DNA of 64,000 nt from Octopus vulgaris. Taxonomy: Eukaryota. The position numbers were made by a program, and so were the translations under genes. Where the stretch lies: positions 185,380,001-185,444,000 of the forward strand of contig OX597814.1 of NCBI GenBank assembly GCA_951406725.2. The letters run 5' to 3'. The notes beneath the pieces are model-generated. The model saw only the letters and a list, made by a program, of their open reading frames with translations, had not been told where the DNA came from and ran no database searches. Below, in pieces: positions 17,309-57,655 of this stretch. The first letter of the stretch is position 1. The number at the start of each line of letters is the position of its first letter.

Positions 17309-18412
17309 ATATATATATATATATACATATATATTTACTTTTACTTTTATTTTTACTTGTTTCAGTCATTTGACTGCGGCCATGCTGGAGCACCGCCTTT
17401 AGTCGAGCAAATCGACCCCGGGACTTATTCTTTGTAAGCCCAGTACTTATTCTATCGGTCTCTTTTTGCCGAACCGCTAAGTGACGGGGACATAAACACA
17501 CTAGCATCGGTTGTCAAGCGATGCTAGGGGGACAAACACAGACACACAAACACACACACATACATATATATATATATAACGGGAAGCTTTATGAAAATAG
17601 ACAAATGACGAAGGCAGGTGGAAAACAAACAAACAATTGTATTAGTATGGCGCTCAGGAAATATAAATAAAACAAGTCTTTAACGTTTCGAGCCTACGCT
17701 CTTCAACAGAAAGATACACAGAGAGAAAAATAACACAGAAAGAAGGAGAGAAAAAAATGCGTGCAGTAACTAACGAATCAACATGGCGATCTTATATATA
17801 TATATATATACAAAAAGCAATAAAGATTCAAGTTAATTTAAATGAATTTACTTGAATATGGTACCTAACTTAGATAGAAATAAGCATTCTTGACTGCTAT
17901 ATATATATATATATATATATATATACATATATATTTACTTTTACTTTTATTTTTACTTGTTTCAGTCATTTGACTGCGGCCATGCTGGAGCACCGCCTTT
18001 AGTCGAGCAAATCGACCCCGGGACTTATTCTTTGTAAGCCCAGTACTTATTCTATCGGTCTCTTTTTGCCGAACCGCTAAGTGACGGGGACATAAACACA
18101 CTAGCATCGGTTGTCAAGCGATGCTAGGGGGACAAACACAGACACACAAACACACACACATACATATATATATATATAACGGGAAGCTTTTTATGAAAAT
18201 AGACAAAAGACGAAGGCAGGTGGAAAACAAACAAACAATTGTATTAGTATGGCGCTCAGGAAATATAAATAAAACAAGTCTTTAACGTTTCGAGCCTACG
18301 CTCTTCAACAGAAAGATACACAGAGAGAAAAATAACACAGAAAGAAGGAGAGAAAAAAATGCGTGCAGTAACTAACGAATCAACATGGCGATCTTATATA
18401 TATATATATATA
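17281..18412. repeat. Near-identical ~600-bp tandem duplication containing a SINE 3' half and a ~200-bp hammerhead-like element
   Basis: 17281-17811 repeated at 17873-18412 with few differences. Confidence 0.9.
17578..17793 (-). mobile_element. ~200-bp non-autonomous element with variant hammerhead (core at 17677-17714); duplicate at 18178-18395
   Basis: Reverse strand TCTTT-CTGTTGA-a-GAGC-gtag-GCTC-GAAA-CG-TT-AAAGA; flanked by (TA)n. Confidence 0.65.
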
Positions 18413-18439
18413 TATATATATATATATATATATATATAT

Positions 18440-18865
18440 ACGACAGGCTTCTTTCAGTTTCCGTCTACCAAATCCACTCACAAGGCATTGGTTGGTCCGG
18501 GGCTATAGCAGAAGACACTTGCCCAAGATACCACGCAGTGGGACTGAACCCGGAACCATGTGGTTGGTTAGCAAGCTACTTACCACACAGCCACAGAGAG
18601 AGAGAGAGAGATCTTTATATATATATATATATATATATATATATATATATATATATATATATATATATATATATATATATATATATATATATATATATAT
18701 ATATATATATATATATATATATATATATATATATATATATATACATACAGATATATTAGAGGCTATAGTAGAAGACATTCTTGCCCAAGACGCCGCGCAA
18801 TGGGACTGAACCCGGAACCACATGGTTCGGAAGCAAACTCCTTACCACACAGCCAAGCCTGTGCT
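18440..18865 (-). mobile_element. Two tRNA-derived SINE 5' halves (TGGCTGTGTGGTAAG family)
   Basis: Reverse strand GGCTGTGTGGTAAG...GGTTCCGGGTTCAGTCCCA...CTTGGGCAAG. Confidence 0.8.
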
Positions 18866-19162
18866 TTTAACCACGCCTACGACAAGTTTCAAAAAGTTGA
18901 TAAAACTAACGCAACCTTATTAAACATGACAGTTTATCTGTCCCCTTTTTAAAATCAGTTTAGTCTTCGTTCTAATGAGAACCATTGGCCTAGACATTTG
19001 TGATTGTTTGATGTCATGTCTGTCTTCAAGATCATTAGCTGTCCTAATATGTTTGTTATGTTTTCCCCTTTTAATTCTTTGAAATCATTTTCTAAGGAAT
19101 GGTCTCTAAGGAACATGGCTCCATCACAGGAATTTAGATATTAGCAACCATATAGAGTTTCT

Positions 19163-19800
19163 TGTATATATGTAAGTATACGTTTATGTATGTATGTATG
19201 TATGTATGTATGTATGTATGTATGTATGTATGTATGTATGTATGTATGTATGTAAGTGTATATATATACTATGTATATACATATATACATATGTATGCAT
19301 ATATGTATGTACATATGAATGTATGTATGTATTATTTATGTATATATATTTACATATATATATACACTATGTATATAGGTATATACATATGTATGCATAT
19401 ATGTACATATGTATGTATGTATATATACTATGTATATGGGTATATACATATGTATGCATATATGTTCATATGTATGTATGTATATATACTATGTATATGG
19501 GTATATACATATGTATGCATATATGTATGTACATATGTATATATGTACATATGTATGTATGTGTATATGTATGTAAGTATATATATATATACTATGTATA
19601 TAGATATATACATATGTATGCATATATGCATGTACATATGTATGTATGTACATATGTATGTATGTATCTAGGTATGTATGCATGCATGCATGTATGTATG
19701 TATGTATGTATGTATGTACATATGTATGTATGTATGTATGTATGTATGTATGTATGTATGTATGTATGTATGTATGTGTGTATGTATGCATGCGTGTTGA
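19163..19800. repeat. (TATG)n/(TA)n compound microsatellite with ~60-bp higher-order repeats
   Basis: Recurrent ATACTATGTATATRGRTATATACATATGTATGCATAT units. Confidence 0.85.
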
Positions 19801-20233
19801 TATACGTTTTCCTGGTTTTAGTTTTCGAATATCTTACCAATAGAGAAAGAGTCAGTTTCTAGCCTAGAAACAGGATTCCTACGTTGGAATTCGTACAGCA
19901 TCATTGGTGTACTCATATATGCACGTATGTATGCATGTATATATAAAAATAAATGTGTGTGTGTGTGTAGACGTATGTATGTAAATAGGTAGGTAGGTAG
20001 GTAGGTATTTAGATAGTTAGGTAGGTAGGTATGCATGGATGTATGCATGTATGCATAAAGCATACATGCGTATACATCTGTATGTTCTTACTCATACATG
20101 TGCAGGCATTGATGTCACTAACTATATGGATTTGTTTGATTTGACTTAAATATATATATATATATATATATATATATATATATATATATATATATATATA
20201 TATATATATATATAATTCATTCACACACACACA

Positions 20234-20650
20234 TGCGCAGGAGTGGCTGTGTGGTAAGTAGCTTACTTGCCAACCACATGGTTCCAGGTTCATTCCCACT
20301 GCGTGGCACCTTGGGCAACTGTTTTCTATTATAGCCTCGGGCCGACCAAACCCTTGTGAGTGGATTTAGTAGACGGAAACTGAAAGAAGCCCGTCGTATA
20401 TATGTATATGTATATATGTATGTGTGTGTGTGTATATATGTTTGTGTGTCTGTGTTTGTCCCCCAACCTCGCTTGACAACCGATGCTGGTGTGTTGACGT
20501 CCCCGTAACTTATCAGTTCAGCAAAAAGTGACCGATAGAGTAAGTACTAGGCTTCCAAAGAATAAGTCCTGGGTCCATTTGCTCAACTAAAGGCGGTGCT
20601 CCAGCATGGCCGCAATCAAATGACTGAAACAAGTAAAAGAGTGAAAAGAG
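20234..20650 (+). mobile_element. Full-length tRNA-derived SINE with internal (TA/TG)n tract
   Basis: GCGCAGGAGTGGCTGTGTGGTAAG head, CCTTGGGCAA CORE-like motif, tail GCTCCAGCATGGCCGCA...TGACTGAAACAAGTAAAAGA. Confidence 0.9.
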
Positions 20651-55090: not shown

Positions 55091-55439
55091 ATTCACTGTC
55101 CCCTGTACTAGCCCTTACACTAATAGTTCAGTCACCAACATCATTCATATCTCATTGTTTTTGTTGTTACATCTTTCTTTTTTCCTCTTTACTAATTCTT
55201 GCTGTTGTTGTTGCGGTTGTTGTCTTTCCCATCACCACTCCTCCTTCTTCTGGTCTTCTGCTTCCCGCTTCTTCCACATCTTGAAGCATCTCCTCCTACC
55301 ATTATATGTGCTTGCTTTACAAATCATCTTCCCTTTCTCTCCCTCTCTCTGTCTCTGTCTCTGACTCTCTCCTTCCCTCCCGCCCCCCTCCATCTCACAC
55401 CTTTCTGCCAATATCTGTGTATATGCATGTATGAATTTG

Positions 55440-56850
55440 AGGGTTTATGCATGTACACTACACACACACACACACACACACACAGAGTCACACATACACA
55501 CATGCATGCACACACATATATGCATGCAGAAATAATCACACATTTTTATTAATATATAAACATATATATATATATATATATATATATATATATATATATA
55601 TATATATATATATATATATATATAACATATATGTACATACATACAAAAAAATATTTATGCATTTATAAACATACACGCATATATATATATATATATATAT
55701 ACACATGTACATATATACACATATACATATATATATATATACATATATATATTTACATAAAATATAGATCAATGTTACACACACATACATTCATGCATAT
55801 ATACATATATATAAATCTATGTATAAATGTATGTGTGTGTATATATATAATATATATATATATGCATATATAAATCTATCTATATATACATGTACACACA
55901 CACATATATATGTATATACATATGTACATGTTTATATATACAAACATATGCATACATATATATAGATATATACATGTAGATATACACACACACACACACA
56001 CATAAACATATATATATATATATATATATATATATATATATATATATATACATATATATATTTATATTTATATTTAGATAAAATATAGATCAATATGTCA
56101 GAGACACAAACAGATATTTATGTATTTAAATATATATATGTGTATATATGTGTACATATATATACACACACACACACACACACACATATATATATATATA
56201 TATATATATATATATATATATATATATACACACACACACACACACCACTTACTCTATACAGTCTAAGCTCTAAAGAATGTGGTGTCCCCCACCAACACCA
56301 CCAGGCATTTTTTCCTGATTTGCTTTTGCTTTATTAATTTCTTCTGTTGTTGTCATCAAATTCCTCTTATATTTCGCTTTTTCTCTATCTATTTTTTCTC
56401 CATAATTTCATTTCATTCCTATCTATTCGTAAATGTATGAAACACACCTCCCAATATATATACATATGTGTGTGTGTGAGTGTTTATGCGTATGTATGTA
56501 TGTATGTATGTATATGTATGTATGCATATAAATATTTATAAAATACTTTCTACATATGTGCATATATTATACACATTTATGTGCATATGTGTGCATGTGC
56601 GTGTGCATGCATGTTGTATGTATATATATAACGATATATGTATATATATATATATATATATATATATATTTGTGTGTGTATATATATATGTATATGTGTA
56701 TGTATGTATGTATGTATATATATATATACATATATCTATCTATCTATCTATCTATATATATATATATATATATATATATATATGTGTGTATATATATATG
56801 TACATATATATATGTATATATATGCACACTCACACACATGCATAAATGCT
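55440..56850. repeat. (TA)n/(CA)n/(TATG)n compound microsatellite region
   Basis: Directly visible. Confidence 0.9.
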
Positions 56851-56984
56851 CAAACATGCATACCTGCTATTTATTAGAAAACAGGTTATATCATATTGCT
56901 TACAACATTTTAATGTATTGCTAATTTATACATGAAGAGCAAAACCAAAATCAAACTCTTAAAAAGGAAAATAATGTATATATA

Positions 56985-57460
56985 TCATCATCATGATCAT
57001 CCTCAATTAAAGTCCGCTTTCCATGCTAGCATGGGTTGGACGATTTGACTGAGGACTGGCGAACCAGATAGCTGCACCAGGCCCCAATCTTGATCTGGCA
57101 GAGTTTCTATAGCTGGATGCCCTTCCTAATGCCAAACACTCCAAGAGTGTAGTGGGTGCTTTTATGTGCCACCAGCACGAGGGCCAGTCAGGTGGTACTG
57201 GCAATGGCCATGCTCAAATGGTGTTTTTTACGTGCCACCTGCACAGGAGCCAGTCCAGCGACACTAGTAACGACCTTGCTCAAATGTTTTTTCACATGCC
57301 ACTGGCACAAGTGCCAGTAAGGTGACACTGGTAACAATCACGTTCGAATGGTGCTTCTTATGTGCCACCGGCACAGACGCCAGTTAGCTGCTCTGGCAAC
57401 GATCACACTCGGATGGTGCTTTTAGTGCTCCACTAGCACGGATGCCAATCATCAAATTTG
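56985..57460 (-). mobile_element. LINE-tail/SINE-like repeat with (ATG)n tail and internal ~57-bp tandem units; same family at 62725-62951 (+)
   Basis: TTAGGAAGGGCA(T/A)CCAGCT...CCAACCCATGCTAGCATGGAAAGCGGAC shared by both copies. Confidence 0.7.
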
Positions 57461-57482
57461 ATTTTATATATATATATATATA

Positions 57483-57655
57483 TAAAGGGAAAGTTTACGA
57501 AAATAAACAAAAGACGAAGGCAGATGTATCAGGTGTATCAGTATAGCGCTCAGGAATAGAAAAAGTCTTTTACATTTCGAGCCTACGCTCTTCTACAGAA
57601 AGATACACAGAAAAAAACAAGGAGAGAAAAAAATGTGTGTAGTAGCTAAAAATCT
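57483..57655 (-). mobile_element. ~200-bp variant-hammerhead element (core 57566-57603)
   Basis: Reverse strand TCTTT-CTGTAGA-a-GAGCgtagGCTC-GAAATG-TA-AAAGA; within (TA)n. Confidence 0.6.

Follow-up and report, generated by a model that had tools for sequence, protein, structure and literature searches.

Minimal type I hammerhead ribozymes have been described in metazoan Penelope-like elements (PLEs) (Cervera and De la Pena 2014, PMC4209133). Their consensus, shown in Fig. S3 of that paper, consists of a U-rich segment, NNN CUGANGAH, a G..C stem II, GAAAN, a palindrome, NU H, and an AU-rich segment. We analyzed a 64-kb stretch of the Octopus vulgaris genome (assembly GCA_951406725.2, contig OX597814.1, positions 185,380,001 to 185,444,000, forward strand; hereafter the window), which has a dispersed ~200-bp repeat with a motif of this kind. 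The octopus motif resembles the published PLE hammerheads in its extra nucleotide after position 9 and before 10.1, its G10.1-C11.1 pair, its palindromic 15.2-16.2 segment, its short helix I, and its U-rich upstream flank. It also resembles them in occurring mostly as single dispersed motifs, with heterogeneity between subfamilies. However, it differs at core position 6. Every one of the 56 representatives shown in Fig. S3 carries A6 (the descriptor required the catalytic boxes), and the figure has no cephalopod row. The family-level core variant in the available part of that paper is U3-A8, whereas the octopus repeat has a family-wide U6, and its parent open reading frame (ORF) was not seen.

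A natural hammerhead with A6C, in phage Bcep176, retains low activity and prefers Mn2+ (PMC3088659, PMC7151607). The octopus motif also has a natural pyrimidine at position 6, and low activity in Mg2+ would be expected for it too. However, the phage hammerhead is a single sequence, has C, and was tested in vitro, whereas the octopus motif has U, fixed in an abundant animal repeat, and its scaffold is of the minimal dimer type. A second relevant system is PAc, a Poseidon PLE of Anolis carolinensis, in which the hammerhead cuts only with protein, and mutants with a dead hammerhead insert normally (PMC11167929). The PAc nuclease prefers AT-rich DNA, and its reverse transcriptase (RT) starts ~85-92 nt past the cut site, a value obtained by subtraction (PMC11167929). 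The octopus copies are like inserted PAc copies in keeping the whole hammerhead, in their similar distance from the cut site to the 3' end, and in their AT-rich targets, and (TA)n targeting has been described for PLE clades (PMC8557442). PAc differs in being an autonomous element whose ORF begins within the hammerhead and for which protein-helped cleavage has been shown, whereas no such ATG-initiated ORF comes after the octopus motif. Metazoan non-LTR retrozymes (PMC7229834) are likewise noncoding and carry a type I hammerhead in units of ~200-350 bp. However, they are tandem, have canonical hammerheads, and form circular RNAs, whereas the octopus units are scattered as monomers, and their core is minimal and has A6U.

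PLE hammerheads, the family-level core variant U3-A8, and natural A6C are already in print. In the literature that we covered, also in part, neither A6U across a whole family nor a PLE hammerhead from octopus was described; work on PLE variants and Dfam/Repbase lie outside that coverage and may hold cases. The main text of PMC13282606 has no mention of hammerheads or ribozymes.

Five copies of a PLE-type hammerhead motif with U6

An earlier note on this DNA had reported five copies of the repeat, one of them a local duplicate. When copy c4 was used as a BLASTN and nhmmer query, exactly five copies of the ~200-bp unit were found in the window, and the five hammerhead motifs lie exactly where the note had placed them. 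A 29-nt core pattern, allowing up to three mismatches, matched exactly these five copies compared with 0 matches in 100 shuffles. The duplicate was also borne out, because c1 and c2 are in a local duplication of ~600 bp that takes in unrelated flank. There are therefore four independent copies. The copies and their motifs are:

17581..17792 (-): copy c1 of the ~200-bp family, flanked by (TA)n tracts
17677-17714 (-): hammerhead motif of c1, intact, with C3 at 17709 and with U6, U7, and U17
18181..18394 (-): copy c2, within the local duplication with c1 and not independent
18279-18316 (-): hammerhead motif of c2, core 38/38 identical to c1
37696..37888 (-): copy c3, the most diverged, with (TG)n/TA on its 5' side and unique DNA on its 3' side
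37784-37821 (-): hammerhead motif of c3, with U4→A, U6, G7, and U17; the outer pair of stem I is broken
47849..48041 (+): copy c4, flanked by (TA)n and used as the reference of the contig and read pile-up
47915-47952 (+): hammerhead motif of c4, with stem I at 47915-19/47948-52, C3 at 47920, U6 at 47923, N7 at 47924, G8 at 47925, the extra A at 47927, stem II at 47928-31/47936-39 (with a rare G→A at 47936), G12 at 47940, U16.1 at 47946, and H17 at 47947, the predicted cut being just 3' of H17
57487..57655 (-): copy c5, with (TA)n on both sides, lacking a 5' piece between two AGAT words and having a 10-nt internal deletion
57566-57603 (-): hammerhead motif of c5, with U6, A7, U15.2, and A17

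As predicted from these sequences, the motif is a minimal type I hammerhead of the PLE pattern except for A6→U. PLE-type traits that it has are the extra nucleotide at 9.1, G10.1-C11.1, a palindromic minimal helix III, and a short helix I. C3-G8, U4, G5, A9, G12, A13, A14, A15.1-U16.1, and H17 are all present in c1, c2, c4, and c5, and U4 is changed to A in c3. H17 is A or U in 5/5 copies and never G. However, position 6 is U in 5/5 copies rather than the A6 of CUGANGA, which makes the motif a variant and not a canonical member. Position 7 is T, G, C, and A in the four independent copies, the sole four-state column among 173 ungapped ones. An alternative register, in which an inserted U restores A6, was dropped on inspection because it costs G8.

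A relaxed hammerhead descriptor, allowing at most one core mismatch, had no match in 5,000 shuffles of c1 (0/5000) or in any of 10 whole-window shuffles. It recovered c1, c2, and c5 from the real window but not c3 and c4, which have further changes. The stems had been described as mostly kept. This was so for 96.4% of 55 pair cells compared with 20-54% when the structure was slid (the structure was derived from these same sequences), and the palindromic helix III (ACGU) is kept in 4/5 copies; pairs are broken in stem I of c3 and stem II of c4, and c5 has C15.2→U. The four 51-nt motifs gave folding z-scores of -0.81 to 1.23, none of them significant. Rfam returned no hammerhead among the matches listed (150 of 305 window matches) and had 0 matches on c1, but this blank is uninformative because canonical-core motifs near 59.6-60.1 kb were also unmatched. 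We also looked for a tRNA-like 5' head. ARAGORN found 0 genes in the window and Rfam found 0 on c1, although decayed heads can escape both.

The copies are dispersed monomers flanked by (TA)n, with a common 5' start near 47851. The similar ends attributed to the family, CGCCATG...TTCCC, are true for c1, c2, and c4, but c5 has lost CGCCATG and c3 has CGCCGTG...CTCCC. Similarly, the placement of the copies in (TA)n holds on both sides for c1/c2, c4, and c5 but not for c3, which has only (TG)n/TA on one side and no 3' (TA)n. Like PLEs, the copies have gone into AT-rich or microsatellite DNA with no clear duplication of the target site. The distance from H17 to the 3' end is 93-101 nt in c1, c3, and c4 and 86 nt in c5. 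Between 62 and 83 nt precede C3, and the uncut motif is retained in every copy.

Some other features of the unit were seen. We take its 5' end, CGCCATG(TT), at 17782-17788(-) and 47851-47857(+), to resemble a YY1 site. The reverse word, (A/G)TGGCG, lies ~25 nt upstream of the hammerhead in metagenome PLE loci L016, L029, L035, L077, and L109. A downstream GAGCG, invariant in 5/5 copies, can pair with the 3' strand and loop of stem II (47933-47939 with 47968-47978). This pairing is a competing fold in the prediction for c5 and might be an off-switch.

U6 is near fixed and position 7 is free in public contigs

The element, or part of it, is contained in 21 of 24 listed public runs, under four organism labels. 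We aligned four runs to c4 at 80% likeness: three Logan contig sets (X9, X3, and X10, with three organism labels) and one raw-read run (X22). The records aligned to c4 numbered 2,713 (X9), 12,953 (X3), and 5,204 (X10). Therefore, the family is abundant; summed contig depth was not read as copy number. None of the runs with the element is listed as RNA; X9 may be RNA but was not counted as a sign of expression. At position 6, U→A made up 0.09, 0.21, and 0.22% of depth in the three contig sets, and other changes at the site were all <2%. At position 7, C→T made up 45, 24, and 41% of depth, and C→A made up 12, 14, and 12%. This gives three common states: C, T (24-45%), and A (12-14%). The earlier claims of U6 in all copies and of a free position 7 thus hold beyond the window.

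A CpG hotspot had been raised as a possible objection to the freedom of position 7, and C7-G8 is a CpG. However, three other CpGs decayed by 0.5-5.9% on both letters, far below the change at N7. G8→A was <2% in X9 and X10, and in X3 it was either <2% or the single hidden row. We therefore rejected CpG decay as the source of the N7 variation. The variation thus lies between subfamilies and is not postinsertion decay. The CpG shared by stem II and loop II was asymmetric, with G→A in the loop at 5.7-14.3% versus C→T in the stem at 0.9-3.2%. For the 13 conserved letters, core and closing, no change above the CpG background was listed in the contigs.

Depth was maximal over the motif, and loose ends clustered at its borders, at 47916 and 47956-57. 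There, more distant subfamilies stop aligning, although their flanks are still recognizably related. In X3 and X10, there were also TA-rich, low-agreement loose ends 5' of 47851. Head-to-tail joints were found only in single contigs, and (TA)n spacers may interrupt contigs. Depth peaked a second time at 48000-48023, over another conserved block in the element's 3' part, which is a candidate region for protein binding or for the start of RT.

In X22, no more than 20 of the 12.9 million reads aligned, and no family statistics were drawn from this run. Five of its reads, from two starts, cover 47892-47969 and represent a family member with A6 and A7. The run is otherwise almost without the family, despite having the same species label as the run that holds it best. 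The reads are a weak hint of an A6 relative and probably come from one locus or molecule.

A6 is the rule in metagenome hammerheads of the same architecture

We scanned metagenome contigs with the stem II architecture A-GAGC..GCUC-GAAAC, leaving positions 6 and 7 open. This returned at least 120 loci and at least 121 matches. Among the matches listed, 114/121 had A6, and N7 was C in 64, G in 21, A in 15, and T in 14. Also among the matches listed, 81 distinct ones passed checks of U16.1/H17 and stem I; A6 was present in 78 of these and U6 in one. The U6 match (L089) seems to be one altered copy within an A6 family. At another locus (L033), an ORF matching RVT_1 lies upstream of the motif on the same strand (E 5e-8), and its family differs from that of the window. 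The A6 counts and L033 suggest that the architecture belongs to PLE-type hammerheads, in which A6 is the rule. The window element had no BLASTN match at E 1e-3 among the loci, which numbered at least 120. No listed metagenome locus belongs to its family. Family-specific or relaxed patterns had 0 matches in viral contigs and in prokaryote genomes.

Favored explanation and the evidence that weighs against it

We favor the explanation, to which we would give about an even chance, that the copies are solo pseudo-long terminal repeat (pLTR)-like or nonautonomous PLE copies with a constrained U6 hammerhead, which would likely be a weak ribozyme that needs a dimer or a protein. U6 and the other catalytic letters are common to several subfamilies, which differ at N7, loop II, and H17. 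These differences would have arisen in master elements and been filtered for the hammerhead. If the anole PLE is a guide, an RT/GIY-YIG protein would nick AT-rich DNA and reverse transcribe uncleaved RNA, starting ~90-100 nt past the cut site. Copying uncleaved RNA into (TA)n would carry the whole motif along. By analogy, changes at position 6 are costly, but a rate-lowering A6U could spread family-wide because cutting would not be needed for insertion. In favor of this explanation are the match to the PLE consensus at all points but position 6, the metagenome loci of like architecture, the scarcity of A6 in the contigs together with three common N7 states and the asymmetric CpG, the A or U at H17, the depth peak and loose ends at the motif, the PAc-like distance from H17 to the 3' end, the (TA)n targeting of PLE clades, and the low activity that A6C retains.

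The constraint in this explanation comes from the comparison of invariant columns in the four independent copies, which were 32/38 in the hammerhead versus 84/153 in the flanks (Fisher p 8e-4; 18 of the 153 flank columns were gapped and were counted as variable). From these data, purifying selection on the motif is likely but not proven.

A number of observations count against our explanation. Slippage-prone T tracts in the flanks inflate the contrast between core and flanks. The stem covariation that had been predicted did not appear, with compensatory changes in 0 of 11 pairs among the five copies and none at ≥2% in the contigs, although power was low, given the small number of copies and the bias of the pile-up. 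Two outer stem I variants in the contigs, T→C at 47915 (10-22%) and G→T at 47951 (5-9%), are uncompensated. Variable sites in the contig table were about equally dense in the core and flanks, and core variation was enriched in free positions only at p 0.015-0.035, with the positions picked post hoc. The pile-up is biased toward c4-like sequence. U17, found in 3/5 window copies, was <2% in it, as was G7; contigs lose rare variants and overlap, and an A6 subfamily <80% alike would be missed. Only c1/c2 are fully intact, and 3/4 independent copies are damaged in the core or stems (c3 by U4→A and the outer stem I pair, c4 by one stem II pair, and c5 by C15.2→U). The hammerhead helices were not the predicted ground state of the monomer (pair probability up to 0.18). 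Such a prediction is expected for this hammerhead class, yet it lends no support. No PLE ORF was found near the copies, with 0 tblastn matches in the window at E 1e-3 for queries that were ORFs of at least 150 amino acids from the metagenome loci, so that the parent was not seen. Finally, in the available part of a pairwise mutagenesis study, changes to the CUGA turn all had low activity except a C-G swap (PMC9901934).

Alternative explanations

A possible but clearly less probable explanation is that the ribozyme is dead and that selection still keeps its fold for a different task, for example to bind or position the PLE protein. A6U would then have been favored because it stops self-cutting before reverse transcription. 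The low activity of CUGA-turn mutants fits with this, as does the fall of the A6C rate to 3.6e-6 per min in 0.3 mM Mg2+ (one construct). A cis dimer would seldom be available if head-to-tail joints occur only in single contigs, and in all copies the motif is retained uncut and C3 is preceded by 62-83 nt. However, the changes that are tolerated (N7, loop II, and H17 that is not G) are the pattern of catalysis. PAc points in both directions. Its insertion is independent of cleavage, but its core mutants left insertion unaltered, and its protein-binding region is the first 172 nt of the ORF rather than specifically the hammerhead.

We regard it as unlikely, and as less likely than loss of cutting with a selected fold, that the motif is a neutral relic. 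In that case, A6U would be a one-time founder loss, and the apparent constraint would come from a few master lineages and slippage-prone flanks. Four N7 states in four copies, three of them at ≥12% in the contigs, are hard to reconcile with this. So are the 13 conserved core and closing letters, none of which exceeds the CpG background, the CpG asymmetry between loop and stem, and a core block that is conserved while the flanks are only 72-85% alike between copies. A relic would account for the absent covariation, the uncompensated stem I variants at 5-22%, and the similar density of variable contig sites inside and outside the core, and the A6 reads in X22 (five, from two starts) are a weak hint of an A6 ancestor.

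It is very improbable that the U6 core works fully, made efficient by a dimer, metal (Mn2+), or protein, and cuts tandem precursors into circular RNAs as in retrozymes, because the copies are dispersed monomers with defined ends rather than head-to-tail tandems, the core is the minimal PLE type rather than the canonical loop-loop type of retrozymes, and even A6 hammerheads of the minimal PLE type are slow, although the palindromic ACGU helix III in 4/5 copies, an A6C rate of 0.18-0.37 per min in 0.3-3 mM Mn2+, and a unit size close to that of metazoan retrozymes (PMC7229834, in the part available) are in its favor.

Neighboring elements in the window

A second repeat family forms an inverted pair at 59570-59720(-)/59945-60070(+). 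It has the canonical A6 core CUGAGGA and a palindromic CUCGAG helix III, which shows that A6 hammerheads coexist in the same genome. Both sides of the 7-nt stem I vary from one copy to the other, and the folding z-scores are -2.9 and -1.6. A fragment at 37912-38100(+), starting CGAAACGT, faces c3 head-to-head, with a (CA)n tract between them, and possibly represents the 3' half of a further hammerhead repeat of the PLE type.

Remnants of long interspersed nuclear elements (LINEs) are at 15570-16001(-) and 50441-51288(-), with no convincing Pfam match. One LINE-type ORF fragment had one homologue among 15 candidates, which was 89% identical and labeled Octopus vulgaris. We take the first remnant, which has this homologue, to be a CR1/L2-like C-terminal piece, and the second has a CCHC-like knuckle. 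SINE-like repeats in the window also appear similar to octopus repeats.

Implications for PLE hammerheads

The reason that PLEs keep hammerheads is an open question, because these are slow in vitro and cleavage was dispensable for insertion in the sole reconstituted system. A family that has fixed a change at a near-invariant position, while the rest of its motif follows the tolerance map of the ribozyme, offers a natural experiment that is already at hand. If U6 does cut, then descriptors that demand CUGANGA overlook whole families. If U6 does not cut, then the fold would have a noncatalytic role. We consider it doubtful, on the data at hand, that this is a hammerhead silenced by A6U with its fold under purifying selection as a recognition structure for a Penelope-type RT. 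Even so, if this were true, then the octopus repeat would be a natural pseudo-ribozyme, and PLE hammerheads would have a job other than cutting.

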